DNA of 64,000 nucleotides, from contig OY970123.1 of assembly GCA_963705905.1 (NCBI GenBank), forward strand, positions 359,762-423,761, given 5' to 3'. Origin of the DNA: an uncultured Chloroflexia bacterium (GTDB taxonomy: Bacteria; Chloroflexota; Dehalococcoidia; GIF9; UBA5629). Numbering within the stretch: position 1 is the stretch's first letter; every line of letters starts with the position of its first letter. A program made the translations under genes and the position numbers. The notes below the pieces were generated by a model. That model made no database searches, was not told the DNA's origin, and was given only the letters and a program-made list of their open reading frames with translations. This document shows positions 5,873-63,859 of this stretch, in pieces.

Positions 5873-5883
5873 CTTAACATAAA

Positions 5884-48341: not shown

Positions 48342-48476
48342 AAACTCTAAACACTAAACCCGAAATCCTAAACAAATTCTAAAATCCAAATTCCAAAGGC
48401 TTTTTCGTTCCAATCCTTTGAGCTTTGTATTTTGATATTGTTTAGAGCTTAGAATTTAGGTTTTTGAATTTATCCA
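48342..48476. other. AT-rich low-complexity tract with CTAAAC-type short repeats and an imperfect long inverted repeat
   Basis: CTCTAAAC, ACTAAAC, CCTAAAC and TCTAAAA occur on one arm, and TTTAGAG and TTAGAATTTAGG on the other. They flank CCAAAGG...CCTTTGA. Base composition drops sharply relative to the flanks. Confidence 0.5.
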
Positions 48477-48662
48477 TGTAGGGGCGTACCTTCAGGTGCG
48501 CCCGGCGTTTATAACCACGTCATTGCGAGGAGCCCGCAGGCGACGTGGCAATCCTTTGTTCGAAGGTTTCAAGCTTCTCGTTTATTCTGTAGGTGCGTAC
48601 CTTTCCCGATATAATCGGGACGTCCACGTATTTTCGGACGGGTCTAAAGACCCGTCCCTACA
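48477..48662. repeat. Repeat cluster 1 (families A and B)
   Basis: Short B' hairpin at 48477-48503 (TGTAGGGGCGTACCTTCAGGTGCGCCC). Family A forward at 48519-48554, with its tail hairpin running to 48566. Full B element at 48587-48662. Confidence 0.9.
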
Positions 48663-48732
48663 TTTATTAATATGTCATTGTGATAAAATTGTCGCATAGC
48701 GGAACTAGCAGGGTTAGAAGGAGGTTGTTGCA

Positions 48733-50646
48733 ATGCCGGATAAATCTGAATACGTAAAACTGTTTGAGCCCGGATCGATCGGAAAACTGAAAATCAAGAA
48801 CCGCATCGTCATGCCGCCCATGGCAACGAACTACGCTGCCGCCGACGGAACAGTAACCGATTTGATGATTGCACACTATGAGCAGCGGGCCGCGGGTGGG
48901 GTGGGCTTGATCATCACCGAGGGGACCTGCCCCGATTTCCCCGTGGGCAAAGGTTGGCCCAGTGAAGCAGGCATCGACGATGACAAATATATCCCCGGTT
49001 TCAAACGCCTGGTAGACGCCGTTCACAGGCACGGGGCCAAAATAGCTATGCAGATCCACCACGGCGGCAGGGAGGCCAGGAAGGAGTTCACCGGCAAACA
49101 GCCTGTTGCCCCGTCACCCATCCCGGCGTCCGCAACCGCCGACGTTCCCAGGGAATTAACCGTGGCTGAGATTAAGGACGTGGTCGACCGCTTTGCCATG
49201 GCAGCGGAGCGGGCCAGGAAGTGCGGCTTCGACGGCGTGGAGATCCACGGCGCTCACGGCTACCTTATACATCAGTTCTTATCTTTGCGGTCTAACAAAC
49301 GCACCGACAGCTATGGAGGAGATCTGGCCAACAGGGCCCGTTTCCTGCTGGAGGTTATCGCGGCGGTCAGGAGCAGGGTGGGCGCCGATTACCCCGTATG
49401 GTGCAGGATTAACGCCGAAGAGATGGGACCCGAAAGTATATCTGCGGAAGACCTCCCGGCCATTGCCAAAATGGCGGAAAAGGCGGGGTGCGATGCTGTG
49501 CATGTATCCGTCTATGGGCTGCGGACGATGACCGATGTGGCGGGAGAGTTGTTACCCTACGCCGAGTCGGTTAAAAAAGCGGTCGGCATCCCTGTCATTG
49601 CGGTCGGTTTTATGTCCCCAGAGGTCGGCAATAAGGCGCTGATGGAAGGCAAGGCAGACTTCATAGCAATGGGGCGCAGGTTGCTGTGCGATGCCGAAAT
49701 TCCTAAAAAATTATTGGAAGGCAGGCCGGAGGACATTGTGCCCTGCATCCAGTGCTTGCAATGCGAGTGGAAGATACATACTGCTGAAGGGACACAGTGC
49801 AGCGTCAATGCCACCCTGGGCAGTGAATACAAATACCCGCTTGCCAGGGCGTCGAAGGCCAGGAAGGTTATTGTTATAGGTGGAGGGCCGGCCGGCATGG
49901 AAGCGGCGCGCGTGGCCGCTCTTCGGGGACATGATGTAACGCTATACGATTCCGGACCGAAGCTCGGCGGACAATTGCTGCTGGCCGGTGTGCCTCCTGA
50001 TAAAGAGCAGATTAAGCTTTTAGTGGACTATCTCAGTACGCAGATGCGCAAGTTGAAGATCAAGGTGGAGCAAAAGGCCGCAACTGCGGAGTTGATTCAA
50101 AAGATGAAGCCAGATGCTGTTATAGTGGCAACCGGGGCTGCCTCACCCGTCATGCCGGATATCCCGGGCCTGGACAAGATCAAACCTTTATCTGCAGCGG
50201 AGGTACTATCGGGCCGCAGTCAAACAGGTAAACGCGTGGTCGTCATCGGCGGTGGCATGGTTGGGTGCGAGACCGCCGGGTTTTTGGCCGAACAGGGCAA
50301 AGAGGTGACCATTATCGAGGTCCTGCCTCAGATAATGGCGAACAAGCCGGCCTTGGTTCAAATCAAGACGCTGATCTCTATGACCGGGAAGGGGATTATC
50401 ATCAAGCCCGGCGCAACCTGTGAGAAAGCGTCCGCGGAAGGTGTGACGATATGCACTGCGGATGGCGCCAGCCAGACCATTCCCGCTGATACCGTGGTGA
50501 TTGCCACAGGCAGTAAGTCGGATAGACGCCTTTTCGATGCCCTTCAGGGTAAAGTGGGCACGACTATTCTTGTAGGCGACGCCGTTGAGCCGAGGTCCAT
50601 ATTCGAGGCTGTTGCCGAAGGCTTTAAAGCAGCTATGTCTTTGTAG
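48733..50646 (+). CDS. Old-yellow-enzyme / 2,4-dienoyl-CoA-reductase-like FMN + Fe-S + FAD/NAD(P) flavoprotein
   Basis: 637 aa. The N-terminal TIM-barrel has HGAHGYLIHQFLS. A Cys cluster lies around CIQCLQC. The C-terminal dinucleotide fold has VIVIGGGPAGMEAA and VVVIGGGMVGCE. Confidence 0.85.
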   Translation: MPDKSEYVKLFEPGSIGKLKIKNRIVMPPMATNYAAADGTVTDLMIAHYEQRAAGGVGLIITEGTCPDFPVGKGWPSEAGIDDDKYIPGFKRLVDAVHRHGAKIAMQIHHGGREARKEFTGKQPVAPSPIPASATADVPRELTVAEIKDVVDRFAMAAERARKCGFDGVEIHGAHGYLIHQFLSLRSNKRTDSYGGDLANRARFLLEVIAAVRSRVGADYPVWCRINAEEMGPESISAEDLPAIAKMAEKAGCDAVHVSVYGLRTMTDVAGELLPYAESVKKAVGIPVIAVGFMSPEVGNKALMEGKADFIAMGRRLLCDAEIPKKLLEGRPEDIVPCIQCLQCEWKIHTAEGTQCSVNATLGSEYKYPLARASKARKVIVIGGGPAGMEAARVAALRGHDVTLYDSGPKLGGQLLLAGVPPDKEQIKLLVDYLSTQMRKLKIKVEQKAATAELIQKMKPDAVIVATGAASPVMPDIPGLDKIKPLSAAEVLSGRSQTGKRVVVIGGGMVGCETAGFLAEQGKEVTIIEVLPQIMANKPALVQIKTLISMTGKGIIIKPGATCEKASAEGVTICTADGASQTIPADTVVIATGSKSDRRLFDALQGKVGTTILVGDAVEPRSIFEAVAEGFKAAMSL

Positions 50647-50664
50647 GGTTTTCTGTAGCGTACT

Positions 50665-50867
50665 CTGTAGGGGCGTACCTTTCCCGATAGAATCGGGACG
50701 CCCGCTCGTTTTCGGACGGGTCTGAAGACCCGTCCCTACATTTTTTACCCCGTCATTGCGAGGAGCACGCAGGCGACGTGGCAATCCTTCGATTCGGAGA
50801 CTGTAACCTTCGTACAAAAGATTGCCGCGCTCCGCTCGCAATGACCTGTTAACTAGCTCGCAATAAC
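50665..50867. repeat. Repeat cluster 2 (B element + 94-nt composite A element)
   Basis: B at 50665-50740. Composite at 50752-50845, made of A1 forward (50752-50787) and A2 reverse (50807-50845). A degenerate CTCGCAATAAC lies at 50857-50867. Confidence 0.9.
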
Positions 50868-50971
50868 CTGCTAGCCCTTGACAAACTCAGGCAAAAATAA
50901 TTATATTGTATGCAAATATTCTGTATCGCAACTATTCATATCATGAGGTACGAATCAGGAGTTCTAAGGCT

Positions 50972-52153
50972 ATGGAAGATTGTTTAAACCTATCAGAAAA
51001 AGACCGGGTAATTTACGAGAACTTTATCTCTTGGCTTGAACAAAGCTGGTATGGCGTACCTGCATCAGAGGTCTTGCTGCCGTACGTGGCAGCGCGCTAT
51101 ACAGCTGAAGAGGCATCCTTCCTAACCGGCATGCCGTTTACGCCTAAGGCGCTGGCCGAGCTTTCCGAATTGACCAAAACCAACATTGAAGTACTTCGCC
51201 CGAAACTGGACGCTCTAGCCTCTAAGGGACTCGTGCATAAACAGGTCAAAGATGGCAACTTGCGCTATTGCCTGAACGATATCTTGTTCATCTACCGCAC
51301 GTTCGGTTGGCCCGGCCGCGGCGACGAGTATGACAGAACAGTGGGGCCGCTTCAGCACAAGTATATCCTCGGCGGCCTGATGTCACCTTTTCAGAACGTT
51401 AAGGAAAAAGCTTTGCGGGTGTTGCCTATAGAGGCCAACATCGAAGACAGCCGCGGCGTTCTGCCCTACGAGGAAGTCCGTAAGATACTGGATAAAGTCG
51501 AATACTTCACGGTTAGCCACTGTCCCTGCCGTCACGCGAATAACCTGGATCCTGACTTACCGGACTGCCGGTATCCCACCGAGGTCTGCCTGCATTTCGA
51601 CAAGCTGGGACATTATATCGTCGAAAACGGCATGGGACGCGAGATAACACGCCAGGAGGCGGAGGAAATACTCAAACGTTCTGCTGAATTGGGTCTCATC
51701 CATGGCATCTCCAACCAGCAGGAGAAGCCGGATACGATATGCAACTGCTGCAGGGATTGCTGCATCTGGTTCACGGCCATGAAAAGATACGGGCATAGCG
51801 GCAGCCTGACTCCCTCCAATTTCCGGATTCATATTAATGATGAGACCTGTACCGGATGCGGACTCTGCGTAAAGCGCTGCCCCATGGAGGCGCTACGGTT
51901 AGAAGACACTCCTTCAGCCAGGGGCAGGAAGACGGTGATCGCTGATGAGCAGGGAAAAGAAAGAAATTTGGTGAACAAAACCGGCAAAGTGTCCAGGGCT
52001 ACTATCGAACATTGTATCGGCTGCGGAGTGTGCGCATATAAATGTCCGTCCAAATCGCTCACTCTGATACGCAACGAGACCGATCACCATCCGCCACAGA
52101 CCGGCCGTGATTGGGCCATCCAATTTATCTCGCAGAAGAATGAGAGCACATAG
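50972..52153 (+). CDS. Fe-S protein: N-terminal wHTH-like region, CPCRH/CNCCRDCC Cys motifs and a 2x[4Fe-4S] ferredoxin domain
   Basis: I prefer ATG 50972 (MEDCLNLSEKD, AGGAG upstream) over the track's TTG at 50906. C-terminal CTGCGLCVKRCP and CIGCGVCAYKCP motifs. Confidence 0.75.
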   Translation: MEDCLNLSEKDRVIYENFISWLEQSWYGVPASEVLLPYVAARYTAEEASFLTGMPFTPKALAELSELTKTNIEVLRPKLDALASKGLVHKQVKDGNLRYCLNDILFIYRTFGWPGRGDEYDRTVGPLQHKYILGGLMSPFQNVKEKALRVLPIEANIEDSRGVLPYEEVRKILDKVEYFTVSHCPCRHANNLDPDLPDCRYPTEVCLHFDKLGHYIVENGMGREITRQEAEEILKRSAELGLIHGISNQQEKPDTICNCCRDCCIWFTAMKRYGHSGSLTPSNFRIHINDETCTGCGLCVKRCPMEALRLEDTPSARGRKTVIADEQGKERNLVNKTGKVSRATIEHCIGCGVCAYKCPSKSLTLIRNETDHHPPQTGRDWAIQFISQKNEST

Positions 52154-52174
52154 TGCTCCCAACTTACAAACCGT

Positions 52175-52448
52175 GTCATTGCGAGGCAAAGATTTAGGGG
52201 CGTACCTTTCCCGATAGAATCGGGACGCCCGCTCGTTTTCGGACGGGTCTGAAGACCCGTCCCTACATTATTTAATACGTCATCGTGAGCAGCCCATCCC
52301 TAAACCCCGTCATTGCGAGGAGCCCGTAGGGCGACGTGGCAATCCCCCTAAACACGTCATTGCGAGGAGCCCGCAGGCGACGTGGCAATCCTTTGATTCG
52401 AAGATTGCAACCTCCGTACAAAAGATTGCACGCTTTGCTCGCAATGAC
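52175..52448. repeat. Repeat cluster 3 (families A and B)
   Basis: A half-site at 52175-52186. B at 52195-52267. Degenerate A at 52279-52294. A forward at 52309-52345. Composite at 52356-52448 (A1 forward plus A2 reverse from 52411). Confidence 0.9.
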
Positions 52449-52548
52449 CTCTAAACTCACCCGGGGGCATTGACGAGAGATAATTACCCCCGTGCTAACG
52501 AAACGGTACATGTCTTTACAGAAAATTGCGTCCGGGCAGGGGGCGTCT

Positions 52549-52616
52549 AAGAGGGGCTTTAGCCCCTCTTCTAAATAAATCACCCCTCTCCAACGGAGAG
52601 GGGTTAGGGGAGAGGG
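52549..52616. repeat. Families C and D hairpins, copy 1
   Basis: C is AAGAGGGGCTTTAGCCCCTCTT at 52549-52570. D is CACCCCTCTCCAACGGAGAGGGGTTAGGGGAGAGGG at 52581-52616. Confidence 0.85.
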
Positions 52617-52704
52617 ATAAATCCTTAGTATTTAGCATTTTGACATATGTGTAGCAACGGAATAGTATCATGATCAAGATTAATAGTTAAAGTAGGAGAA
52701 TCTA

Positions 52705-53031
52705 ATGGAAGATTATTTTTATGGCAAAAAGGCAATTGAAAAAGCAGCCAAAATGTTTGCTCTTAAACCCGAACTCATGAAGGCCTTCCTGGATTTTGAC
52801 GGCAAGGTTTTTGCCGAAGGCAGCCTCAATGTAAAGACAAAGGAGCTTATTGCGGTAGCATGCGCACATATAACGCAGTGCCCTTACTGCATCGAAGGGC
52901 ACGCCAAGCGTGCCAAGAAAGCGGGGGCAACGCCCGAAGAAATCGCTGAGGCCATATTTGTTGCCGTCGCCATGCGCGCAGGTGGCTCCATGGCGCATAG
53001 CTGTATTGCTATGGGAGCCCTTGAAGAGTAG
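52705..53031 (+). CDS. Carboxymuconolactone decarboxylase / AhpD-like family protein
   Basis: 108 aa with the CPYCIEGH (CxxC) motif characteristic of AhpD-core proteins. Confidence 0.8.
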   Translation: MEDYFYGKKAIEKAAKMFALKPELMKAFLDFDGKVFAEGSLNVKTKELIAVACAHITQCPYCIEGHAKRAKKAGATPEEIAEAIFVAVAMRAGGSMAHSCIAMGALEE

Positions 53032-53037
53032 GACCGC

Positions 53038-53331
53038 CCCGATTTCATCGGGCCCTCCAGGCCACAAAAACCTGTTATTGCGAGGAGCCGCAGGCGACGT
53101 GGCAATCCTTTGTTCGAAGGCTTGAAGCCTATAGCCCGGGCAAATAACCACGTCATTGCGAGGAGCCCGCAGGCGACGTGGCAATCCTTCGATTCGAAGA
53201 ATGCAACCTTCGTACAAAAGATTGCCACGCTTCGCTCGCAATGACCTGTTAACTCATCGCTTAATGCTAAGTTAGTGAACACGTCATTGCGAGGAGCCGG
53301 CAGGCGACGTGGCAATCCTTTGATTCGAAGG
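53038..53331. repeat. Repeat cluster 4 (family A x4 plus a free CCCGAT hairpin)
   Basis: CCCGAT-TTC-ATCGGG at 53038-53052. A forward at 53074-53108 (tail to 53120). Composite at 53152-53245 (A2 reverse from 53207). A forward at 53283-53318 (tail to 53331). Confidence 0.9.
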
Positions 53332-53357
53332 CACCTATTTGACACTCCATAGCACGA

Positions 53358-54203
53358 ATGCTATATTCGTCATCTGTGAAACGCATAGGCATTTTATACC
53401 ACCCCAAAATAGGTAAATCCGAGCAATTTGCCGCTGATGTCGAGCAGTTTTTGAAGCGCAAAGGTGTCGGATGCTGGGTGCATTCCTCCTGGGACGAAGT
53501 TGGAGCCCAAAAACATCTTGATACTATCACCGACCTGGCTGTCAGCGTGGGCGGCGACGGCACCATACTGCGCGTAGCCAGGATCATCTTCCCGCTCGAG
53601 ATACCAATCGTGGGCATAAATTTTGGCAACCTGGGCTTCATGACCGAGCTGAGTGCCGAAGATGCCCTTGATAAGCTTCTGGCGATCATCGAGGGTGCTG
53701 GCTGGACCGAGGAAAGGGTCATGCTCCAGGCTGTGCTCAAACGTACGGGCAATAAATACCACGCGCTGAACGATGTGGTCGTGGGCCGGGGCAAGTTCCT
53801 CAGGCTGGTCAACATACAGGTTAATATCAACGGTGAACCCTTCACGACCTACCGGGCGGACGCTGTCATCGTGGCGACCTCTACCGGCAGCACGGGTTAT
53901 TCGCTGGCTGCCAACGGCCCGATACTTCATCCAGAGTCGCGTGACCTCATTCTCAAGGCCGTTTGCCCCCATTTAAGCATGGACAAGGCAGTTATCCTGG
54001 CACCGGAAACAAAGGTCAGGCTGAAGGTCTTCACCAATCATGGGGCGGTCGTCAGCATGGACGGCCAAGTGGAGGAGCCGCTTAATACCGAGGATGAAAT
54101 CGAAGTATCGCTCAGCCCCAACGTGACCAAATTCATCCGCTTGAGGCCCAAGGGCGAATTTTACTCGACGCTGATATCCAAACTAAAAGGGAAGTCGTTA
54201 TAA
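53358..54203 (+). CDS. nadK: NAD+ kinase
   Basis: 281 aa with the GGDGTILR motif and the NAD-kinase C-terminal beta domain. Confidence 0.9.
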   Translation: MLYSSSVKRIGILYHPKIGKSEQFAADVEQFLKRKGVGCWVHSSWDEVGAQKHLDTITDLAVSVGGDGTILRVARIIFPLEIPIVGINFGNLGFMTELSAEDALDKLLAIIEGAGWTEERVMLQAVLKRTGNKYHALNDVVVGRGKFLRLVNIQVNINGEPFTTYRADAVIVATSTGSTGYSLAANGPILHPESRDLILKAVCPHLSMDKAVILAPETKVRLKVFTNHGAVVSMDGQVEEPLNTEDEIEVSLSPNVTKFIRLRPKGEFYSTLISKLKGKSL

Positions 54204-54232
54204 AAGGAAGGCGTTGAAGAGGGAGGTAACAC

Positions 54233-54528
54233 GTCATTGCGAGGCGACCCACTCACTAAACCCGTCATTGCGAGGCGCCTGGAGGCGCCGTGGCAATCCT
54301 TCACTACGAAGGCACAGAGTATCTGGCTAGAAAAGGAAGGCGTTAAAGAGGGGCTTTAGCCCCTCTTATATAAAAACTCCCCTCTCCCTTGAGGGAGAGG
54401 GCCAGGGTGAGGGTATTGAACAAAGAAGCAATCCTTCACTACGAAGGAGGCAACCCGTCATTAGGTCTCACTAAACCCGTCATTGCGAGGAGCCCCGCAG
54501 GGCGCCGTGGCAATCCTTCACTACGAAG
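54233..54528. repeat. Repeat cluster 5 (families A, C and D)
   Basis: A half at 54233-54244. A forward at 54264-54299 (tail to 54312). C at 54346-54367. D at 54377-54413. A 3' half at 54428-54447. A degenerate A from 54457. A forward at 54479-54516 (tail to 54528). Confidence 0.9.
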
Positions 54529-54546
54529 ACGCGAGGGACATAAAAA

Positions 54547-55014
54547 ATGAAAGTAGAAAAAGCCACCATAGACGACGTCAAGCAGATGCACGAGCTTGTG
54601 AACAAGTTCGCAGGCAAGGGCGAGATGCTGCCGCGTGCCTTGAGCGAGATATATGAAAACCTGAGGGACTACCTGGTGATACGCAACAAGGCCGGGAAGG
54701 TGGCCGCCTGCGTGGCGCTGCATATAAGCTGGGCCGACCTGGCCGAGGTCAAGGCGCTGGCGGTGGTCCAGGCGCAGCAGAAGAAGGGTGTGGGGGCGGC
54801 GTTGATCAGGGCCTGCGTGGAGGAATCGAAGGCGCTGGGCATACCGCGCATATTCTGCCTGACCTACAAGCCCGCATTTTTCAAGAAGCAGGGCTTCAAG
54901 GAAGTGGAGAAGATGGAGCTGCCGCGCAAGATCTGGGCGGAGTGCTATAGCTGTCCCAAGTTCCCCGACTGCGACGAAGTAGCGCTGGTCTACGACGTAA
55001 CGGCGGCCGACTAA
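54547..55014 (+). CDS. GNAT-family N-acetyltransferase
   Basis: 155 aa with the acetyl-CoA loop QAQQKKGVGAALI. Confidence 0.8.
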   Translation: MKVEKATIDDVKQMHELVNKFAGKGEMLPRALSEIYENLRDYLVIRNKAGKVAACVALHISWADLAEVKALAVVQAQQKKGVGAALIRACVEESKALGIPRIFCLTYKPAFFKKQGFKEVEKMELPRKIWAECYSCPKFPDCDEVALVYDVTAAD

Positions 55015-55556: not shown

Positions 55557-55615
55557 TTGTAACAGAGTGGTTAATTTTTGCATAATTTCTGGAGGTAATC
55601 TATCTTTTTCTCTAA

Positions 55616-56335
55616 TTAAATGATGAATAAACGTTGGATTCTATCTGCCACGGAACTAGATGTATCTAATATCTTTCCTTTGCGGTCTGTGCGAATCTTA
55701 AATTCCCTCTCGGGTTTTCTCTTTGTCGTTACGTCCTTCTCATCCTTCATTTTTGCAAAAAGTAATTTACTCATTTCATCAAAAGATTCAGCTGGATCTC
55801 TGCCCTCTTCATTTCTGATAATATCATGGCATTGCTGAATTACTCTTGCTAAGCTATTTAGATCTTCAAATTTGATAAGCGATTTCCCTTCTTTCTGGAA
55901 TTTACCATGCATTAGGGAATCAGACGCAATTTGAGTGGATTCACCCTGCCTATCACCGGTTTTGAACCAGAGCCAACCTGTTGATGACCCGTCAGTAACT
56001 ATGAAATAAGGAGATCCCAATCTTTGTGCATAGCTTTCAGCCTGTAACCAATCTTCGCTAGTGATCGCTCCTGCAGCTTTACATTCGACAACAATATGAG
56101 GAATCTTTCTATGTCCTTCGATTACAGAAACAACAATATCTGAGTACGTTGTCATCCTTCCGAATTTTACCGGCACTTCAAAATCCATAAGTTTATAACC
56201 TAATACATCTCTGAGGTATGGAATAATTTTTTCTTGCTTGACTTTTTCCTCCGGCCCAATCTTCTCCCGCATTTTCCTGCCTATGACTTCTTCGTTTTCT
56301 CCATTGTTTATATGTAGATCTGCTTTACCCTTCAT
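55616..56335 (-). pseudogene. Remnant of a restriction-modification gene: HsdR_N-type PD-(D/E)xK domain plus the first part of an N6-methylase N-terminal domain, no catalytic MTase domain
   Basis: 239 aa. SDIVVSV...HIVVECKAAG...YFIVTDG matches the type I R-subunit N-terminal nuclease-like domain. LARVIQQCHDIIRNEEGRDPAESFDEMSKLLFAKM resembles an HsdM N-terminus, and the ORF then ends. The locus is visibly AT-richer than its flanks. Confidence 0.55.
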
Positions 56336-56493
56336 GATAGCCCCTCCGAAAAAATCATATATTTTGGCACTGATTATAGTTCAATATTAAAATTAGCAAC
56401 AACTTGGTAGATTAATAACCTGCGTTCAAGGCAGACTTCTTGAGAAATTGTGCGGTTAAATATTCAGGCACAACCGTGATTGGATAGGGAGTA

Positions 56494-56641
56494 GATTGCC
56501 ACGTCCGTCTGTGGGCTGATCTCTAATGACTGGTGGTTCCTTCGTGCAAAGGATTGCCATCCCGATTTCTTCGGGACCTTCGGCGCTACGCTCGCAATGA
56601 CGGGGTATATAGACGGGCGCACCTAAAGGTACGCCCCTACA
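56494..56641. repeat. Repeat cluster 6
   Basis: Degenerate A reverse at 56494-56530. A reverse with a long insert at 56539-56601 (contains CCCGATTTCTTCGGG). Short B' hairpin reverse at 56615-56641, ending 3 nt from the stop of the icd-like gene. Confidence 0.85.
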
Positions 56642-56644
56642 GAG

Positions 56645-57724
56645 TTACTTCATCGCCTTGATCACGGCGTCGCCCACCTGTGAGGTAGTGGCGCTGGGCG
56701 CGTTGCGGTCAGGGCGCAGGTCGTAAGTCACATGCTTGCCTTCGGCGATGACGGCGGCGATGGCGTTCTCCATCTTGTCGGCCGCCTTCTCTTCATTCAA
56801 ATAGCGCAGCATCAGAACGGCGGAGAGCATCTCAGCCATGGGGCTGACCTTGTTCATGCCGGTATACTTGGGGGCGCTGCCGTGCGTAGGCTCGAAGAGG
56901 GCCACGCCGTCGCCGATGTTGGCGCCGGGCGCCAGGCCCAGGCCGCCTACAATCCCGGCGCAGAGGTCGGAGATGATGTCGCCGTAAAGGTTGGGCAGCA
57001 CCAGCACGTCGAAGATGCGGGGGTCGCGCACCAGACGCATGCAGAGCGCATCCACCAGCACCTCGTCGTACTCGATCTCGGGGTAATCCTTAGCCACTTC
57101 ACGAGCCACGGAGAGGAAGAGCCCGTCGGTAAACTTCATGATGTTGGCCTTGGAAACCGCCGTGACCTTCTTGCGCTTATATTTGCGGGCATAGTCGAAG
57201 GCGTATTTGACGATGCGGCGGGTGCCAAATTCGGAGATGGTCTTGATGCTGTAGCCGGCATCCTTGCGCAGTGGGTCCTTGAAGCTCTTCTTGATCAAAT
57301 CATATAGCTGGACGGCCTCGGGGCTGTCTTTGGCGAACTCGATGCCGATATAGAGGTCCTCGGTGTTCTCCCTGACGATGACCAGGTCGACATCACGGTA
57401 GGGAGTGGTGATAACGCCTTTGTAGCTCTTGCAGGGCCTGAGGCAGGCGTAGAGGTCGAGCTTCTTGCGCAGGGCCACGTTGACGCTGCGGAAGCCGGTG
57501 CCGATGGGTGTGGTGACGGGACCCTTCAAGGCGACTTTGTTCTTGCGGATGGACTCGATGGTCTCTTCGGGCAGGGGAGTGCCGTATTTGGCGATGGCGG
57601 CTTCGCCCACGGTGAAAACATCCCAGTCGAACTTAACACCGGTGCTCTCCAGAACGCGCACGGTGGCCTCGGTGATCTCGGGACCGATGCCGTCGCCGGG
57701 GAGGAGGGTAATCCTGTATGACAT
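56645..57724 (-). CDS. Isocitrate / homoisocitrate / isopropylmalate dehydrogenase family enzyme (NAD-IDH-like)
   Basis: 359 aa. ITLLPGDGIGPEI and GFRSVNVALRKKLDLYACLRP look closer to IDH3/homoisocitrate-type than to classical LeuB. The substrate cannot be assigned by eye. Confidence 0.8.
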   Translation of the reverse strand: MSYRITLLPGDGIGPEITEATVRVLESTGVKFDWDVFTVGEAAIAKYGTPLPEETIESIRKNKVALKGPVTTPIGTGFRSVNVALRKKLDLYACLRPCKSYKGVITTPYRDVDLVIVRENTEDLYIGIEFAKDSPEAVQLYDLIKKSFKDPLRKDAGYSIKTISEFGTRRIVKYAFDYARKYKRKKVTAVSKANIMKFTDGLFLSVAREVAKDYPEIEYDEVLVDALCMRLVRDPRIFDVLVLPNLYGDIISDLCAGIVGGLGLAPGANIGDGVALFEPTHGSAPKYTGMNKVSPMAEMLSAVLMLRYLNEEKAADKMENAIAAVIAEGKHVTYDLRPDRNAPSATTSQVGDAVIKAMK

Positions 57725-57742
57725 GTTAGTTTTCCTCGCTGC

Positions 57743-58072
57743 TTTCGGACGGGTCTTTAGACCCGTCCCTACAACTCAACGTCTCTTAGTTCCTTCGAAG
57801 GGAAGGATTGCCACGTCGCCCTGCGGGGCTCCTCGCAATGACGTGTTTCTCACTGCTTCCTTCGTACGAAGGATTGACACGGCACTGCGTGCCTCGCCAT
57901 GACGTATTATACACGCGGGCGCACCTGAAGGTACGCCCCTACATAAAAGGGATTTCCTTCGAAGGGAAGGATTGCCACGTCGCCCTGCGGGGCTCCTCGC
58001 AATGACGTGTCAATTTTGCTCCTTCGAAGGGAAGGATTGCCACGCCCCGATTGCATCGGGGCTCGCAATGAC
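57743..58072. repeat. Repeat cluster 7 inside the leuD-icd spacer
   Basis: B 3' half at 57743-57773. A reverse copies at 57792-57842, 57859-57903, 57956-58006 and 58021-58072. Short B' hairpin reverse at 57917-57943. Positions 57790-57846 and 57954-58010 are identical. Confidence 0.9.
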
Positions 58073-58076
58073 GTTT

Positions 58077-58583
58077 CTACCACTTGAAGTCACCATACTT
58101 ATTGATATAGGGGACCAGGCCGCCTTCGTTGAGGATGTTGAGCATGGCGGGAGGTATCCTGGTGAAGGTGTATTTCTCGTTCTTAGTGACGTTGTTGACG
58201 ATGCCCTCTTCCAGGTCGACTTCGAGCGTGTCGCCGTCATTGATCTTATCGGTGTCGCAGATGAGGATGGGCAGGCCCTGGTTGATGGCGTTGCGGAAGA
58301 AGATGCGGGCGAAGGATTTGGCCAGCACGGCGCTGACGCCGGCCATCTTGATGACCAGCGGGGCATGCTCGCGGCTGGAGCCCAGCCCGAAATTGGATCC
58401 GCCCACAACGAAATCTCCCGGCTGGACCTTCGAGGCGAACCCTGGATTGGCGTCCTCCATAACGTGTTTGGCCAGCTCGGGCAGGTTGCTGCGCAGGTGG
58501 GCGTACTTGCCGGCGATGATGAGGTCGGTGGAGACGTCATCGCCGAACTTGAAGGCCCTGCCCTTTAAGTGCGTGTGCAGCAT
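58077..58583 (-). CDS. leuD: 3-isopropylmalate (or homoaconitate) dehydratase small subunit
   Basis: 168 aa with GSNFGLGSSREHAP typical of the aconitase swivel domain. Confidence 0.85.
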   Translation of the reverse strand: MLHTHLKGRAFKFGDDVSTDLIIAGKYAHLRSNLPELAKHVMEDANPGFASKVQPGDFVVGGSNFGLGSSREHAPLVIKMAGVSAVLAKSFARIFFRNAINQGLPILICDTDKINDGDTLEVDLEEGIVNNVTKNEKYTFTRIPPAMLNILNEGGLVPYINKYGDFKW

Positions 58584-59837
58584 TAAAGGACCTCTCTCGG
58601 ATCGGTGATCCTGCCGGTGATAGCGGAAGCCGCGGCGGTAGCGGTGGAAGCCAGGTAAATGAAGCTGTCAGGGTTGCCCATGCGGCCCTTGAAGTTACGG
58701 TTGGCGGTCGAGATGCAGACCTCGCCGTCGCCCAGTATGCCCTGGTGCAGGCCCAGGCAGGCGGCGCAGCCGGGAGGCAGTATCAGCCCGCCGGCTTCGA
58801 TGATGGCATTGGTGTAGCCCGACTTGTTGGCCTCCAGCATGATTTGCCGCGAGGCGGGACAGACCAGCAGGCGCACGCCCTCGTGCACCTTTTTGCCTTT
58901 GAGGATGGAGGCGGCCTCGGCCATATCCTCCAGGCGGCCGTTGGTGCAGGTGCCGATGAAGGCCTGGTTGATCTTGATATCCTTTAAATCTTTGACGGCG
59001 GCGGTGTTGTCCACCGTATGCGGCTTCGAGATGGTCGGCTCGAGCCTGGAGGCGTCGATATCGATAACACGCTCGTAAACGGCGTCGGCATCGGGCTGAA
59101 AGGGCTTGAATTTATCCGCCCGGCCCTGTGATTTGAGAAAGGCCTGCGTTATCTTGTCCGAGGGGAAGATGCCGGCTTTGGCCCCGGCCTCGACGGCCAT
59201 GTTGGCGATGGTCAGCCGCTGGTACATGGGCATTTTGTCGATGGTATCTCCGGAGAACTCCAGCGCACGTGTAGGTGGCGCCGTCGGCGCCGATAAGCCC
59301 GATCAAATGTAGTATGAGGTCCTTGGCGCCCACGCCCTTGCCGAACTTGCCGCTGACGTTGACCTTGAAGGTCTCGGGCACGCGCAGCCAGGTCTTGCCC
59401 AGCGACCAGGCCACGGCGATGTCGCTGGAACCCATGCCGGTGGCGAAGGCGCCCAGCGCCCCGGCGGTTACTGTATGGGAGTCGGCCCCCACAATGACGT
59501 CGCCGGGATTGGCCAGCTTCTCGGCTACGAGCTGGTGGCAGACCCCGCTGCCGGCGTCGAAGAGCAGGCAGCCGGTTTCGGAGGCGAACTGCCGCAGGAA
59601 AAGATGGTCGTTGGAGAGCGCACGGTTGGGGCTGGGGGCGGCATGGTCGATGAAGACCGCCGACCTGGAGGGATTAGCCAGCGTCTGCTTCTTGCCCGCC
59701 TTGAACTGGCGCACCGTGAGGGGTCCGGTGGTATCCTGTACGAAGACCAGGTCCACCGGCGAGATGACGATGTCGCCGGCTTTGGCGTCCGTCCCGGATT
59801 TGGCGCTGAGTATCTTTTCGCTTAAAGTTTTGCCCAT
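58583..59837 (-). pseudogene. leuC: 3-isopropylmalate dehydratase large subunit with one frameshift near 59270 (or assembly error)
   Basis: Track ORFs 59112..59837 and 58583..59233 are the two halves. The sequence GADGATY then reads RALEFSGDTIDKMPMYQRLTIANMAVEAGAK only after skipping one base (plus-strand T at ~59270). Confidence 0.85.
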
Positions 59838-59872
59838 AATAGATTCAATATTTTAGCACTTTTGTCGACAAC

Positions 59873-60163
59873 GTCATTGCGAGGCACGGAGTGCCGTGGC
59901 AATCCTTCGATTCGGAGACTTCAATGACCTGTTGAGAGATTTTAAATCCCTTCGTACAAAGGATTGCCACGTCGCCGGCGGGCTCCTCGCAATGACGTGT
60001 TAAGGGGGACTTGCCAGTTGGCCTCGAGTCTTCGTACAAAGGATTGCCACGTCGCCCCGATTACACCGGGGCTCCTCGCAATGACGTATTTACTACTCCC
60101 TTAGCACGTCATTGCGAGGCACGAAGTGCCGTGGCAATCCTTCGATTCGAAGACTGCAATGAC
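59873..60163. repeat. Repeat cluster 8 (divergent leuC / GIY-YIG spacer)
   Basis: Mini-composite forward at 59873-59928. A reverse at 59949-59996 and 60030-60085. Mini-composite forward at 60108-60163. Confidence 0.9.
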
Positions 60164-60200
60164 TTGTTGATGTATAGCGCCCCCAATGACATAATAAAAC

Positions 60201-60491
60201 GTGGTGAAAGAGCAGTTCTACATATACATAATTTGCAACAAGAATAACAGTTCATTGTATACAGGTGTCACCAGCGACCTGGTAAAACGTGTTTCGGAAC
60301 ACAGGGCCAAGTCGGCGGATGGGTTCACCCAACGATATAACCTGGAAAAGCTCGTTTACTATGAGATAGCAGGTAATGCCGAAGCGGCTATTCTGCGGGA
60401 GAAACAGCTTAAAGCAGGTCCCCGCAAGAAGAAAATCGAATTGATCGAAGGCACGAACCCGCTTTGGAGGGACCTGTACGCTGAGCTTTGA
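60201..60491 (+). CDS. GIY-YIG nuclease family protein (small, UPF0213-like)
   Basis: 96 aa with a GTG start. FYIYIICNKNNSSLYTGVTSDLVKRVSEH (GIY...YTG) and an R..E..LK region. Confidence 0.8.
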   Translation: MVKEQFYIYIICNKNNSSLYTGVTSDLVKRVSEHRAKSADGFTQRYNLEKLVYYEIAGNAEAAILREKQLKAGPRKKKIELIEGTNPLWRDLYAEL

Positions 60492-60860
60492 GCCTTCGTA
60501 CAAAGGATTGCCACGTCGCCCTGCGGGCTCCTCGCAATGACGTGTGAAGGGGGACCAGTCAGTCGGCTTTGAGCCTTCGTACAAAGGATTGCCACGTCGC
60601 CTGCGGCTCCTCGCAATGACGTGTCGAGGGAGTTGGCAACCAGGTCATTGCGAGGCCCCGATTTCGGTCGGGGCCGTGGCAATCCTTCGATTCGGAGGTA
60701 TCGATCCCTTCGTGTAAAAGATGCTTCGCTACGCTCGCGATGACGTGTGAAGGTGCCCTACTAATCGGCTTGGAGTCTTCGTACAAAGGATTGCCACGTC
60801 GCCCTGCGGGCTCCTCGCAATGACGTGTTACTCCTTCGATTCGGAGGCTACAATAACGTG
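60485..60860. repeat. Repeat cluster 9
   Basis: A reverse at 60493-60541 and 60574-60620. A forward at 60644-60685. Degenerate A reverse at 60707-60744. A reverse at 60777-60824. Degenerate remnant at 60831-60860. The extended unit GCTTTGAGCCTTCG (60485.. and 60566..) includes the GIY-YIG stop codon. Confidence 0.9.
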
Positions 60861-60918
60861 TTTCCATAGGCAGCATGGTAAAATACATTCGTATTGGAAC
60901 GGATAGGATGGCGTTTAA

Positions 60919-61764
60919 ATGGCAGAAGCAAGAGAAGAAAACTACCTGGGCGTAACAAGCATAGGGAAGACTGTATTCCAGTGGGGGACGCGCACATACG
61001 TGATGGGTATCATCAACCTGTCGCCGGACTCGTTCTCGGGCGACGGGTTCAGGGATACGGAGGATGCCATACTCAAGGCGCAGCAGATGGTCCAGGACGG
61101 CGCAGATATAATTGACGTGGGTGGGGAATCGACGCGGCCGGGCGCCGACCCGGTGACGGTGGAGGAAGAGCTGGGCCGGGTGCTGCCCTTTATACGCAGG
61201 GCGGCCGGGATTTTGAACGTGCCGGTCAGCATCGATGCCTACAAGGTGGAAGTGGCAGTGCGGGCGCTGGATGCCGGGGCCGCCATGATAAATGACATAT
61301 CAGGACTTAAGGAGACGGAGCTGGTGCAACTGGCCGCCCAGCGCAAAGTCCCCATTATCCTAACCAGCAATGAACGCGGCAAAAACGTAAAAGAAATTGT
61401 CTCAGCAGTCGATACAACTTTACATAAACTCATTGATGCAGCACTTAAAGCAGGGGTGGAACGGGAGAACATCATCGTCGACCCGGGCATCGGGTTCGGC
61501 AAGACGCAGGAGCAGAACCTGGAGCTGTTAAGGAGGCTGGACGAGTTGAAGGCTACATGCCGTCCCATTTTGCTTGGGACATCCCGCAAATCGGTTATAT
61601 ATAATGTAGTAGGGGAAGATATGGAGGCCAGGATGATAGGGACGGCGGCCTCGGTCGCCATTGGCATCAGCAAGGGCGCCGATATCGTAAGGGTACACGA
61701 CGTGAAGCAGATGAAATTGATCGCTAAGATGAGCGATGCCATCGTACGGGGGGCAGTGAAGTGA
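60919..61764 (+). CDS. folP: Dihydropteroate synthase
   Basis: 281 aa with GADIIDVGGESTRPG and the pterin-binding domain pattern. Confidence 0.9.
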   Translation: MAEAREENYLGVTSIGKTVFQWGTRTYVMGIINLSPDSFSGDGFRDTEDAILKAQQMVQDGADIIDVGGESTRPGADPVTVEEELGRVLPFIRRAAGILNVPVSIDAYKVEVAVRALDAGAAMINDISGLKETELVQLAAQRKVPIILTSNERGKNVKEIVSAVDTTLHKLIDAALKAGVERENIIVDPGIGFGKTQEQNLELLRRLDELKATCRPILLGTSRKSVIYNVVGEDMEARMIGTAASVAIGISKGADIVRVHDVKQMKLIAKMSDAIVRGAVK

Positions 61765-62267
61765 CGGAAGTCTATATCGGCATCGGGTCCAACCTGGACG
61801 ACAGGATAGCCAATATTTCCAGGGCCGTGGCGCTCTTATCCAGCTACGGCAATATCGAGTCGATGTCGTCGGTCTACGAGACCGAGCCGGAGGGGCTTAA
61901 GGGCCAGCCGGACTTTTTAAACTGCGTGATCAAGGCGCAGGTCGAGATGGACCCCGACCGGCTGCTGGCGGTCCTGAAGAAGATCGAGAAGGAGATGGGC
62001 AGGAAGCGAGGCAAGCGCAACGGCCCGCGCCTGATCGACCTGGACATGCTGTTCTATAATAGCCGTGTGATAGATACCCCGGACTTAAAAGTGCCGCACC
62101 CGCGACTGCCATCGAGGGCATTCGTTTTGGTGCCCATGGTGGAGATCGCACGCGGCTTTATACACCCCGCGTTGCATAAGTCCATGCTACAGCTATTGAC
62201 AGAGCTGGAGTCCGCCGGCAGGGTCGACAAACGCCAGGACCTGAAAATAGGCATAAAGGGAAGCTGA
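61761..62267 (+). CDS. folK: 2-amino-4-hydroxy-6-hydroxymethyldihydropteridine pyrophosphokinase
   Basis: 168 aa. VYIGIGSNL.., RLIDLDML and PHPR motifs. GTG start with a 4-nt overlap on folP. Confidence 0.9.
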   Translation: MTEVYIGIGSNLDDRIANISRAVALLSSYGNIESMSSVYETEPEGLKGQPDFLNCVIKAQVEMDPDRLLAVLKKIEKEMGRKRGKRNGPRLIDLDMLFYNSRVIDTPDLKVPHPRLPSRAFVLVPMVEIARGFIHPALHKSMLQLLTELESAGRVDKRQDLKIGIKGS

Positions 62268-62268
62268 T

Positions 62269-62637
62269 ATGTATTTATTGTCGGTGGAGAAGAGTTTCGA
62301 CGCAGCCCATTACCTGAGGGGATATAAGGGTAAATGCGAAAAGTTGCACGGCCACAGGTTTAAGGTGGTGGTGCGCCTGAAGGCGGAGGAGTTGAACGGC
62401 ATCGGCCTGGCTTACGACTTTACGGACCTGAAAAAAGACCTGGTGGATATACTGGCTAAATACGACCACGGCTGCCTGAACGACGTCGAGCCCTTCGACA
62501 AGATAAATCCGTCTTCGGAAAATATCGCCCGCACGGTGTACGAACGGCTCAGCCCGCTTTACTCAGGGGCCGTCGGCATAGAAAGTATCGAGGTCTGGGA
62601 ATCGCCGGAGTCCTGCGCCGTCTATAAACCGGGCTGA
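62269..62637 (+). CDS. queD: 6-carboxytetrahydropterin synthase / PTPS family protein
   Basis: 122 aa with FDAAHYL and CEKLHGH motifs. Confidence 0.85.
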   Translation: MYLLSVEKSFDAAHYLRGYKGKCEKLHGHRFKVVVRLKAEELNGIGLAYDFTDLKKDLVDILAKYDHGCLNDVEPFDKINPSSENIARTVYERLSPLYSGAVGIESIEVWESPESCAVYKPG

Positions 62638-62825
62638 CGGCTTGAGTCCTGAATATCGGGCGGCAGCAGGTTGGGTATGCCGTCCTTGATGGGGTACGTG
62701 TGGTCGCATTTATGGCAAATGAGCGAGCCTGCCGTTATCTCGCGTTCGTTGAGTTCCGTGACTACCAGCTCCAGGGGACCCTTGCACACGGGGCACACGA
62801 TTATCTCCATAATGGACTCTTTCAT
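62622..62825 (-). CDS. Trm112-like zinc-ribbon protein (UPF0434)
   Basis: 67 aa, IVCPVCKGPL...CHKCDHTYPIKDGIPNLL. Its 3' end overlaps the queD 3' end by 16 nt. Confidence 0.8.
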   Translation of the reverse strand: MKESIMEIIVCPVCKGPLELVVTELNEREITAGSLICHKCDHTYPIKDGIPNLLPPDIQDSSRQPGL

Positions 62826-62855
62826 ATCATCTCATCCTGTTAGTAATTTGGGCCG

Positions 62856-63518
62856 TCAGCTTGAACTCTTCGGCATGAAAAGGCTTTGCCAGACGGATAT
62901 TCTAACATTTTGCGTGACGGTCCGCTCCTTGCGTACCTGCGTGGCGACATCCCTGTACTTGGTCACCTCCCTGGTCTTGGTGACCGGCTGGTACTTAGTG
63001 ACCTGCGCCGGGTAGCTGGTGGTCACCGTGGCCCACGTCTGGCCCGAAGTATAGGCGGGGTAGGCGGCCCAGCCGCCGTTATACCAGGGGCCATATGGCG
63101 ACCACGGTCCGTAGGATGGCCCATAGGGAGGGGTGTAGGGCTCGGATGAGCTGTAGTTATCGCCGATTACATAACTCTGGGGCGGATAGTAAGAGCCGCT
63201 TGCTGCGTTGGTAATGTTGATCGTGACGGTGGTGCCGGGGTTATCGACCTTGAAGCTCTGCGACCAGCTGCCGTAGGTGACGGCCTGGCTGATAACGATG
63301 TCGCTCTGCGTCTCGGTGGTCTGATAGGGGACCATGTCCGTATAGGTCTCATTATCGGTATAGGGCTGAAGCGTGGTATCGGTCTCCCAGTAGCTCTCCT
63401 GGACCGGCATGGCTACCGACACGATGGGAAGGGACAGGACTACGATGATGACGACTACAGGAATGCCGACAGCCAGAATAATCGTCCGATATTTTAAAAA
63501 GAATTCCTTAAAACTCAT
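62856..63518 (-). CDS. Membrane-anchored Tyr/Pro/Trp/Gly-rich protein, unknown function
   Basis: 220 aa. N-terminal TM (IILAVGIPVVVIIVVLSLPIV), an aromatic-rich segment PYTPPYGPSYGPWSPYGPWYNGGW, and C-terminal VTKY-type short repeats. Confidence 0.6.
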   Translation of the reverse strand: MSFKEFFLKYRTIILAVGIPVVVIIVVLSLPIVSVAMPVQESYWETDTTLQPYTDNETYTDMVPYQTTETQSDIVISQAVTYGSWSQSFKVDNPGTTVTINITNAASGSYYPPQSYVIGDNYSSSEPYTPPYGPSYGPWSPYGPWYNGGWAAYPAYTSGQTWATVTTSYPAQVTKYQPVTKTREVTKYRDVATQVRKERTVTQNVRISVWQSLFMPKSSS

Positions 63519-63590
63519 TTCCCGCCTCCTGACTCAGAATAACCGCGTGTTAGATTTAGTTTAGCCAATAAGGTTAAGGGGGGCAAACGT

Positions 63591-63859
63591 CTTCGAAGCG
63601 AAGGATTGCCACGACCCGATTGCATCGGGTCTCGCAATGACCGATTTACGTGCCTGTAAGAACCTGCAAATAGTCACGTCATTGCGAGCGAAGCGAAGCA
63701 ATCTTTTGTACGGAGGTTTCAGTCTTCGAATCAAAGGATTGCCACGACCCGATTGCATCGGGTCTCGCAATGACGTGTTTACAGGATGGGTGCACGGCGG
63801 CAACTTAACAGGTCATTGCGAGGAGCTGAAGGCGACGTGGCAATCCTTATAATCGAAGG
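63591..63859. repeat. Repeat cluster 10
   Basis: A reverse at 63591-63641. A2 forward at 63678-63703 (tail to 63716). A reverse at 63724-63774. A forward at 63812-63846 (tail to 63859). Confidence 0.9.

Follow-up and report, generated by a model that had tools for sequence, protein, structure and literature searches.

The window analysed here, a stretch of 64,000 nt from an uncultured Chloroflexia bacterium (contig OY970123.1, positions 359,762 to 423,761, forward strand), forms part of a 2.47-Mb metagenomic contig (ENA ERZ25039519), and the nearest named relatives of its IDH-like protein were found in the Dehalococcoidia. Its right-hand part carries a dense cluster of short palindromic repeats, here named Family A, centred on an ssn-like gene (60201..60491, + strand) whose product, a 96-aa single-domain GIY-YIG nuclease, is presumed to be the enzyme cognate to the repeats. 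An unfiltered search of the entire window with a covariance model (R1) built from cross-phylum copies located 29 Family A units at E <= 0.016, all of them within 48,513-63,850, that is, 29 units in 15.4 kb. One unit lies on each side of the gene: the 3' end of the upstream partner (60102..60144, +; R1 57.6 bits, E 1.9e-14) is 57 nt before the start codon, and the core of the downstream partner (60501..60547, -; R1 45.9 bits) starts 14 nt past the stop codon. From the sequence comparisons presented below, these units would be interspersed DNA hairpins recognised by the Ssn-family endonuclease encoded at 60201-60491, a reading to which a probability of about 80% is given; their likely role would be that of a recognition and cleavage hairpin in single-stranded DNA (ssDNA), and not that of an RNA.

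Outside the cluster, R1 yielded three chance-level matches only (E 0.4-1), and no Family A unit was detected by the model in the first 48 kb of the window despite spacers of 200-530 nt there; two more units were present in the 9.5 kb past the right end of the window. Counts of the separate arms were in agreement: the 5' arm GTCATTGCGAG (allowing one mismatch) had 34 matches versus 1.2 expected, 33 of them within 48,519-63,822, and the 3' arm GTGGCAATCC had 31 versus 5.7 expected, 28 of them within the same limits. The set comprised 22-23 units with both arms intact, five short variants and one or two degenerate units, plus three solo 5' arms, so the earlier note on this DNA, which had counted about 30 full copies, gave a fair figure, and its six example hairpins read at their coordinates exactly as described. 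Units occupied both strands, with six convergent pairs, and all 29 were intergenic, located between real genes (positions taken from a simple longest call of open reading frames, ORFs), the short ORFs overlapping them being repeat sequence. The genes bordering the unit-filled spacers encode an old-yellow-enzyme-like reductase, an Fe-S protein, CMD, NAD kinase, an acetyltransferase, a NUDIX protein, a leuB-like IDH, leuCD-like aconitase subunits, folP/folK and PTPS. The concentration of units around the ssn-like gene recalls the NTS clusters of Neisseria.

The unit consists of (C)GTC-ATTGCGAG, a variable near-perfect palindrome, and CGTGGCAAT-CC, and its forward sense in this window can be written (T)AAaCAC - GTC - ATTGC - GAG - [insert] - CGTG - GCAAT - CC - TTYG-N3-5-CGAAGG. 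ATTGC and GCAAT form a proximal stem of 5 bp; of 149 distinct copies, 148-149 had its A-U, U-A and U-A pairs, and 141 had a further pair between the G that ends GAG and the C that opens CGTG, which leaves a small asymmetric internal loop (GA / GTG). The GTC and CC were invariant in 39 seed sequences from many phyla, these columns being fixed by the search pattern, and several stem classes of ssn-flanking units, collected independently of that pattern, again showed GTC and a C following the stem (read by eye, uncounted). The base ahead of GTC was mostly C in the window (17 of 20 units) and in close relatives (27 of 30), and in units from other phyla (n = 141) it was T in 76 and C in 55; the base after CC was T in 19 of 20 window units and A in 71 of the 141.

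The insert measured 5-34 nt, with a distal stem of 2-12 bp. From all sources 205 distinct inserts were collected, and 172 were symmetric hairpins; isolated mismatches occupied 14 of the 762 interior positions. This bears out the description of the insert as self-complementary given in the earlier note. Two subclasses were distinguished: in the first, Watson-Crick pairs directly follow the closing G-C pair, and in the second (40/205) a tandem G.A/A.G step comes first, as GAG-GA...GA-CGTG; the mirror form TC...TC was never seen among the 205. A K-turn reading of the GA/GA subclass was rejected on inspection, the non-bulged strand having four extra bases ahead of the proximal stem. The short variant has the form GTCATTGCGAGCGAAGCG(A/T)(A/G)GCAATC, and is usually the reverse partner of a convergent pair. 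When folded as ssDNA, five of eight units gave the expected two-helix fold plus the 3' mini-hairpin (z -2.9 to -3.65), and the short variant folded poorly. In the unit at 48513..48558 (+; GA...GA subclass, R1 46.0 bits, ssDNA fold z -2.95) and in other CAC-preceded GA...GACGTG units, the upstream CCACGTC can pair with GACGTGG over 7 bp; this alternative ssDNA fold is the one of lowest predicted energy for 48513-48566; in it the GTC tag is buried, and it competes with the ATTGC/GCAAT stem. The second small hairpin, CCTTYG-N-CGAAGG, previously described as following the unit, is real but lineage-specific: it was present after 19 of 20 exact-arm window units and 25 of 30 units in four close relatives, and after 20 of 141 units in other phyla. 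The upstream TAAaCAC is likewise common to the window and the four close relatives, and not to other phyla.

The characterised enzyme to which the 96-aa protein can be compared is SsnA of N. meningitidis, a 94-aa GIY-YIG protein that binds the NTS (CGTCATTCCCGCGMAVGCGGGAATCYRG) as ssDNA only and on one strand only (Chenal et al., Nat Commun 2025; PMC11893778). The NTS is the oriented form of dRS3, and SsnA cuts a few nucleotides upstream of it; cutting needs the three bases before the palindrome, and binding depends most on the C after it (PMC11893778). The typical gene arrangement is NTS-ssnA-NTS, the Neisseria system lowers transformation by NTS-carrying DNA, related proteins with Ssn-related motifs (SRM) of their own occur widely, and the Ssn nucleases are presented as the first site-specific endonucleases with a demonstrated activity on single-stranded DNA alone (PMC11893778). 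In the published survey, ssn was present in 81% of SRM-rich genomes. In the window's protein, the Pfam GIY-YIG domain (PF01541) spans residues 6-76 (E 7.4e-16), and no other domain was detected. More than 3,000 homologues of 95-100 aa were found, and Ssn homologues of ~60% identity occur across phyla. Residues Y9, Y20 and E67 were invariant in 35 homologues, with the spacing of the catalytic residues Y6, Y17 and E64 of SsnA at an offset of +3, a putative correspondence drawn from published positions. PADLOC, NCBIfam and PDB sequence searches returned no named or solved close relative of the protein, the sole PDB matches being the distant UPF0213 protein BH0048 (1zg2) and the UvrC N-terminal domain (E about 1e-3).

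The association between gene and repeat was evaluated in 80 metagenomic loci, fetched by peptide patterns only, which were derived from the alignment of the 35 homologues. The density of the 5' arm was 7.8/kb within 100 nt of the ssn homologue, 4.2/kb at 100-200 nt, 2.3/kb at 200-300 nt and ~0.35/kb beyond 300 nt, an enrichment of about 20-fold within 100 nt; 59 of the 80 loci had a 5' arm within 300 nt of the gene. Upstream arms were mostly forward, and downstream arms mostly reverse, abutting or often overlapping the stop codon (tgaGATTGCTTCG...CTCGCAATGAC), the layout unit(+)-gene-unit(-) being that of the window and of most homologous loci. Several of the 21 loci without a nearby Family A arm carried other GTC-tagged palindromes. 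In two loci, L266 and L273, whose proteins are 60% and 56% identical to that of the window, the units on either side of the gene fitted the Neisseria NTS consensus at 27 of 28 positions; the homologues there being NTS-flanked, the protein family of the window is therefore tied to the characterised Ssn system.

Other repetitive extragenic palindromes (REPs), the GTAG-tagged REP/REPIN elements, are reportedly associated with RAYT transposases of the Y1 HUH type (Nunvar 2010; Bertels and Rainey 2011; Ton-Hoang 2012). They resemble Family A as short hairpins recognised as ssDNA, with inverted doublets, fast copy turnover and an enzyme gene that is single-copy, inherited vertically and bordered by repeats of its own; they differ in the tag (GTAG versus CGTC) and in the enzyme (HUH tyrosine transposase versus GIY-YIG), and they are lineage-specific, whereas the arms of Family A are identical across phyla. 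Family A might be composed of ordinary REPs mobilised by a transposase, Y1 (RAYT or IS200-IS605) or other, whose gene lies in another part of the genome, with the GIY-YIG gene among the units by coincidence, and the presence of GTAG-type REPs, the RAYT-associated kind, within the same 10 kb would agree with this, as would the room left for a RAYT gene by an examination of 64 kb + 10 kb of the 2.47-Mb contig. However, Family A has no GTAG tag, and an all-versus-all BLAST of the ORFs within 1.5 kb of units among the 120 loci listed showed no recurrent protein family, transposase-like or other, save repeat-derived pseudo-ORFs and a UvrA-like cluster. The 20-fold enrichment of units beside ssn homologues in 80 independent metagenomic loci is not a coincidence either, and this explanation is considered highly improbable.

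The repeats themselves could be placed among those described by Di Nocera, De Gregorio and Rocco (BMC Genomics 2013; PMC3733652), who divided REPs into two superfamilies by their tag, GTAG or CGTC. Repeats of the CGTC kind have an unpaired CGTC or TGTC tag (also CCTC), a stem starting with A-T, T-A, and a CC(A) tail, form inverted dimers, occur in many phyla and were judged to be without a dedicated transposase or enzyme; the four families, CGTC-1 to -4, have 8-9 bp stems and 4-5 nt loops (PMC3733652). Family A shares with them the (C/T)GTC tag, the A-T/T-A stem start, the CC(A) tail, the inverted dimers, the intergenic location with an excess between convergent genes, the presence in several phyla and the lack of an adjacent transposase for most copies. 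Its resemblance to the NTS and the SRM lies in a directional hairpin whose AT-first palindrome is immediately preceded by GTC and immediately followed by C, in the intergenic clustering of tens of copies, and in a gene for a 94-96-aa single-domain GIY-YIG protein between inverted copies; the positions that do not vary in Family A (GTC and the C that follows the stem) are those that matter for cutting and binding by SsnA. Within the CGTC-tagged REP / SRM repeats, Family A is described as a class distinct in sequence and architecture. The statement in the earlier note that the element could not be assigned to any repeat family falls, because the repeat matches a described REP superfamily in tag, stem start and tail (PMC3733652), an outcome for which that note had itself allowed, and it also flanks an Ssn-type gene (PMC11893778). 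The ssn association, published in 2025 and found again independently here, fills the enzyme gap left for the CGTC repeats.

The class has features of its own. The NTS is one continuous conserved stem of 8-9 bp, whereas Family A has the 5-bp ATTGC/GCAAT stem, the GAG / CGTG loop and a hypervariable distal hairpin, to which this lineage adds the upstream TAAaCAC and the second 3' mini-hairpin. The host is a member of the Dehalococcoidia (Chloroflexota), and neither the string "Chloroflex" nor the Family A core occurs in the main text of PMC11893778. The ATTGCGAG class was not found in the available part of the supplementary files of PMC3733652 and PMC11893778, and a full-text literature search with the arm sequences and their pseudo-peptide translations gave unrelated primer matches or nothing.

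Several observations weigh against recognition of Family A by the window's Ssn-like protein. Seen from the side of the units, an ssn gene was nearby in one or two of 240 unit-selected loci (phmmer plus hidden Markov model; L072 and, weakly, L103), and in none of the loci from the viral collection; such rarity is expected where one gene serves many sites, yet it allows other mobilisers. Close Ssn homologues were flanked by differing stem classes, and clustering of protein by class was weak (nearest-neighbour agreement 46/57 versus ~58% expected). Compared with the CGTC REPs, the stem of Family A is interrupted, with a 5-bp proximal part, an internal loop and a variable distal part, and its centre spans 5-34 nt. 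The published SRM pattern, HGTCWYN(0-2)YYVSBRHN(0-5)WNVSBRGN(0-2)RNCYNB, matched none of the 22 full units, although the NTS control did match; elsewhere in the window it gave one unrelated match versus 0.5 in shuffles. Cleavage of Family A units by the 60201-60491 protein is something we infer from the work on Neisseria SsnA, and any physiological role in this Dehalococcoidia organism would be an extrapolation. What is new here is a site class missed by the published SRM pattern (0/22) and found in a Dehalococcoidia genome; as the class is invisible to that pattern, surveys using it undercount the system.

The structure of the inner stem was assessed with the 149 distinct copies from many phyla, aligned to the model. 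Pairing was observed in 93.3% of the cells versus 80.3% in shuffles, double-sided changes in 158 cells versus 49 +/- 5 (none of 500 shuffles reached the observed value), and the covariation score was 0.223 versus 0.052 in shuffles and at most 0.026 with partners slid. All four Watson-Crick types were used at inner-stem pairs three and four. The window copies alone gave a modest signal in the first five inner pairs (11 cells). With covariation so far above the controls, selection on, or maintenance of, a folded single strand, as proposed in the earlier note, is supported. Its term compensatory change applies in part: the orthologue in one relative (L246) of the unit at 59957..60002 (-; R1 46.3 bits) differs by a true C-G to G-C flip, so at least one orthologous unit shows such a change, while some of the variation is module replacement (CCCGAT-N3-ATCGGG).

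The same property bears on the possibility that a host protein (gyrase, IHF or a regulator) binds the units as double-stranded DNA, as proposed for the REP/BIME elements of E. coli. Arms that are invariant over 10-11 bp would be suited to this, and such roles are documented for E. coli REPs (cited in PMC3733652); but a double-stranded site offers no reason for a centre of 3-30 nt that varies freely and yet is always self-complementary, and the inter-arm spacing of 5-34 nt is incompatible with a fixed double-stranded footprint, which leaves very little probability for this explanation.

The folded species is more likely to be ssDNA than RNA, because the palindromes are near-perfect without an excess of G.T, the units are not co-oriented with genes, Rfam gave no match and the enzyme family acts on ssDNA only (PMC11893778). 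The leading idea of the earlier reading was an RNA role, in which the units would be transcribed with their neighbours to act as 3'-end stabilisers, terminators or processing sites, the covariation reflecting selection on RNA structure. The intergenic position of the units and their stable hairpins are in line with this, as are the excess between convergent genes (31 units) over divergent genes (12), which is found for REPs generally (PMC3733652), and the C/T alternation opposite G in the second hairpin, which gives G-C or G.U on the forward strand. On the other hand, orientation was unlinked to transcription, with 25 units co-oriented and 23 anti-oriented in unidirectional gene contexts; in the variable stem G.T mismatches were as rare as A.C (6 versus 4 in 762 positions); and the units were not trailed by a T-run. 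A search of Rfam 15 matched no family in the whole window at the gathering score, and even at E <= 10 the 59.8-60.9 kb region yielded chance matches to miRNA/snoRNA models only. Moreover, SsnA does not bind RNA (PMC11893778), and the tight link to a DNA nuclease gene is left without a function in an RNA model, which is judged improbable.

A genome scan with one genome per species, requiring both arms exact and a gap of 3-33 nt, recovered at least 120 loci, with units, among the loci listed, in Alpha-, Beta-, Gamma- and Deltaproteobacteria, Campylobacterota, Bacteroidota, Clostridia, Chloroflexota, Planctomycetota, Nitrospirota, Melainabacteria and several lineages of the candidate phyla radiation. 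The arms were identical across more than 10 phyla and also turned up in IMG/VR viral contigs, with inner hairpins differing by the hundreds; nearly every copy among the listed loci had a different, perfect hairpin insert. Convergent dimers on Novosphingobium plasmids matched the short variant at 100% identity over 27 nt, and such convergent arrangements were also seen in Azoarcus and others. In three IMG/VR contigs (L133 2670-2857, L125 11382-11520 and L139) the units formed head-to-tail arrays with spacers of ~10-24 nt, neighbours having different inner hairpins, and in the viral loci 74 units were inside long ORFs according to a crude ORF call.

Four relatives (L245 to L248), with IDH-like proteins 93-97% identical to that of the window, had the same gene order, with ssn at the same place, and their corresponding spacers were also filled with units (65 units in 52 kb). 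The leuD-IDH spacer contained 0, 4, 5 or at least 7 units across genomes with 93-97% identical IDH; some units were orthologous between relatives, and others were replaced or were partial duplications leaving solo 5' arms. Copy number is turning over quickly between close relatives. No clean filled/empty sites or target duplications were found between the window and L245-L248, the spacers being too rearranged. An AT-rich element (ttgtattttga..ttgtttagagYttagaatttag) lies at 48420-48475 in the window, after a nuoN-like gene, and a closely similar one fills the leuD-IDH spacer (L246 5915-5985) of the sole relative without a Family A unit there.

These distributions would also suit a purely selfish element, in which unit(+)-ssn-unit(-) is or was a cassette resembling an insertion sequence (IS), and the solo and paired units are derivatives of the kind of REPINs or miniature inverted-repeat transposable elements, made through Ssn-started ssDNA intermediates and without host function. 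A gene between inverted units is an IS-like arrangement, an idea also raised by Chenal et al. (PMC11893778), and the rapid copy-number change among close relatives, the identical arms in more than 10 phyla and IMG/VR contigs, the spread of ~60% identical Ssn homologues over phyla, and the tandem arrays and solo half-units, which resemble copying by-products, are all consistent with it. Against it, ssn is single-copy and in the same syntenic place in five related genomes, and therefore the cassette itself has not recently moved; the comparison of the window with L245-L248 revealed no target-site duplication or clean empty site, and we know of no strand-transfer activity in GIY-YIG nucleases. 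The selfish account shares the recognition step with the preferred explanation and differs from it only in the purpose of the system; it is held to be a tenable possibility, though not a probable one.

Under the preferred explanation, recognition by the Ssn-type enzyme, a unit would fold when its DNA becomes single-stranded, during replication or repair or in incoming transforming or conjugative DNA. The enzyme would read the invariant base of the hairpin, made up of the ATTGC/GCAAT stem with its GTC tag and following C and of the GAG/CGTG internal loop, and would cut the folded strand a few nucleotides upstream. The distal stem would not be read by sequence, pairing alone being required of it, and its free variation would therefore be explained. 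The outcome could be control of recombination of repeat-bearing ssDNA, spread of the repeats, with ssn in an IS-like cassette and the solo units as its non-autonomous companions, or both. Candidate origins for the diverse perfect distal palindromes are point change plus selection, templated fold-back repair, and nesting of mini-palindromes. A more speculative and rather unlikely proposal is that of a two-part Ssn site, with a protein-read invariant base and a free distal slot for unrelated mini-palindromes, in which both the palindromes and the copies of the unit would be made by Ssn cleavage with fold-back or templated repair; if true, GIY-YIG-driven copying of ssDNA would be a form of bacterial mobile DNA without a transposase, and would explain the identical arms in more than 10 phyla and in phage contigs.

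The site class is abundant in public data, as the 59 of 80 ssn-homologue loci indicate. Ssn nucleases are under development as ssDNA tools, and each pair of enzyme and site is a new specificity, the pair in this window being a candidate from the Chloroflexota. An invariant base with a free distal stem suggests which part of the hairpin is read, and that the target could be shortened or customised. In metagenome bins, Family A also accounts for a very frequent origin of spurious "hypothetical proteins"; two ORFs on the minus strand, 60252-60584 (110 aa) and 60559-60888 (109 aa), are mostly repeat units or antisense to ssn.

Among the remaining units of the window, the first convergent pair was formed by 50746..50791 (+; R1 47.5 bits) and the short variant GTCATTGCGAGCGGAGCGCGGCAATC at 50815..50851 (-; 20.7 bits, E 9e-4). 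Two units in tandem, 52303..52349 (+; 46.1 bits) and 52350..52395 (+; 45.9 bits), were followed by a short variant at 52419..52454 (-; 16.4 bits, E 0.016), with which the second of them makes a convergent pair. Next came a unit with the 5' arm GTTATTGCGAG (53068..53112, +; 38.7 bits), a convergent pair of 53146..53191 (+; 45.3 bits) and the short variant 53215..53251 (-; 29.9 bits), and the units 53277..53322 (+; 44.2 bits), 54258..54303 (+; insert GCGCC-TGGA-GGCGC, 47.0 bits, ssDNA fold z -2.88) and 54473..54520 (+; 46.0 bits). A degenerate unit with a long insert was located at 56547..56601 (-; 16.7 bits, E 0.014). Four units stood in tandem on the minus strand: 57801..57848 (44.8 bits), 57867..57909 (one change per arm, 30.1 bits), 57965..58012 (45.2 bits) and 58030..58078 (45.8 bits), the last with the insert CCCCGAT-GCA-ATCGGGG and an orthologous copy in L245 and L247.

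Around the ssn-like gene, besides the units already mentioned, were 59867..59909 (+; 52.9 bits), 60037..60091 (-; long insert, 44.3 bits), a site that is without a unit in L246, 60582..60626 (-; 46.5 bits), 60638..60689 (+; insert with a 9-bp stem, 44.0 bits, ssDNA fold z -3.54), a degenerate short variant GTCATCGCGAGCGTAGCGAAGCATC identified by arm match (60700..60744, -), and 60784..60830 (-; 46.3 bits). The right-most group comprised 63599..63647 (-; insert ACCCGAT-GCA-ATCGGGT, 43.2 bits, ssDNA fold z -3.65), the short variant with the 27 nt identical to the Novosphingobium plasmid repeats (63672..63708, +; 21.1 bits), 63732..63780 (-; 46.2 bits) and 63806..63850 (+; 45.1 bits).

The three solo 5' arms of the window, identified by arm match, were at 50857..50867 (-; GTTATTGCGAG), at 52175..52185 (+), where a GTAG-type repeat follows, and at 54233..54243 (+), 20 nt ahead of the next full unit. 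Solo arms of this type, GTCATTGCGAG plus ~10-20 nt, placed head-to-tail ahead of a full unit, were also seen in L247 (5775-5830), L251 and L252, and 5' arms outnumber 3' arms because of this repetition. They look like the by-product of one-ended copying or slippage.

In the comparison of ORFs within 1.5 kb of units, the UvrA-like cluster, whose longest member (L015, 910 aa) is UvrA-like by sequence, was represented in seven of the 120 loci listed, and it may take in other ABC ATPases too. REP insertions in uvrA and other repair genes were noted by Di Nocera et al. (PMC3733652).

Other repeats shared the tract. GTAG-tagged REPs were present in the same spacers at 48478, 48589 and 50667 (+) and at 48661, 50739, 52266, 56640, 57772 and 57942 (-), of the types GTAG-GGACGGGTC-TTYA-GACCCGTCC and GTAG-GGGCGTACC-TTYAGG-TGCGCCC, often as an inverted pair of ~75 nt; a pattern search of the whole window gave no GTAG-type copy in 1-48 kb. 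Both REP superfamilies coexist in this tract. The palindrome CCCGAT-N3-ATCGGG was found at 48605-48619, 50683-50697, 52210-52224, 53038-53052, 58046-58060, 63615-63629 and 63748-63762; it occupies the apex in GTAG-type repeats and in three Family A units, and one copy stands alone just after the CMD-family gene. A 39-nt Family A unit with this insert was also present in a Chloroflexia metagenome-assembled genome (L008) and in L094. The palindrome is a candidate for a nesting mobile module or for a product of hairpin remodelling. Cyanobacterial small dispersed repeats are reported to nest inside one another (Elhai et al., Genome Res 2008); the likeness lies in tiny palindromic modules inside other repeats, here in both Family A and GTAG-type units, but they have no sequence relation to Family A, and any insertion event behind the nesting here would be hypothetical. 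A third repeat, composed of GAGGGGCTTTAGCCCCTC, an AT-rich spacer of ~15 nt, CCCCTCTCC-N4-GGAGAGGGG and a G-rich tail, had copies in the same spacers at 52551-52625 and 54348-54420, and in the relative L248 at 5880-5950.

The repeats also mark a recombination-active neighbourhood beside a variable slot between the IDH-like and NUDIX genes, which looks like a hot spot of defence genes inside the repeat-dense tract. In the window this slot (55616-56335) holds one HSDR_N_2 protein, followed by a spacer to 56645. The corresponding positions in the relatives are L245 7094-10839, L246 7110-12127, L247 7197-10915 and L248 7417-13080, and between them the relatives carry an MmeI-like methylase/restriction protein; a Z1/DUF4420/HATPase trio; a HinfI-type restriction-modification pair with ParA; and HicAB with a PLD-helicase and an MmeI-like gene.

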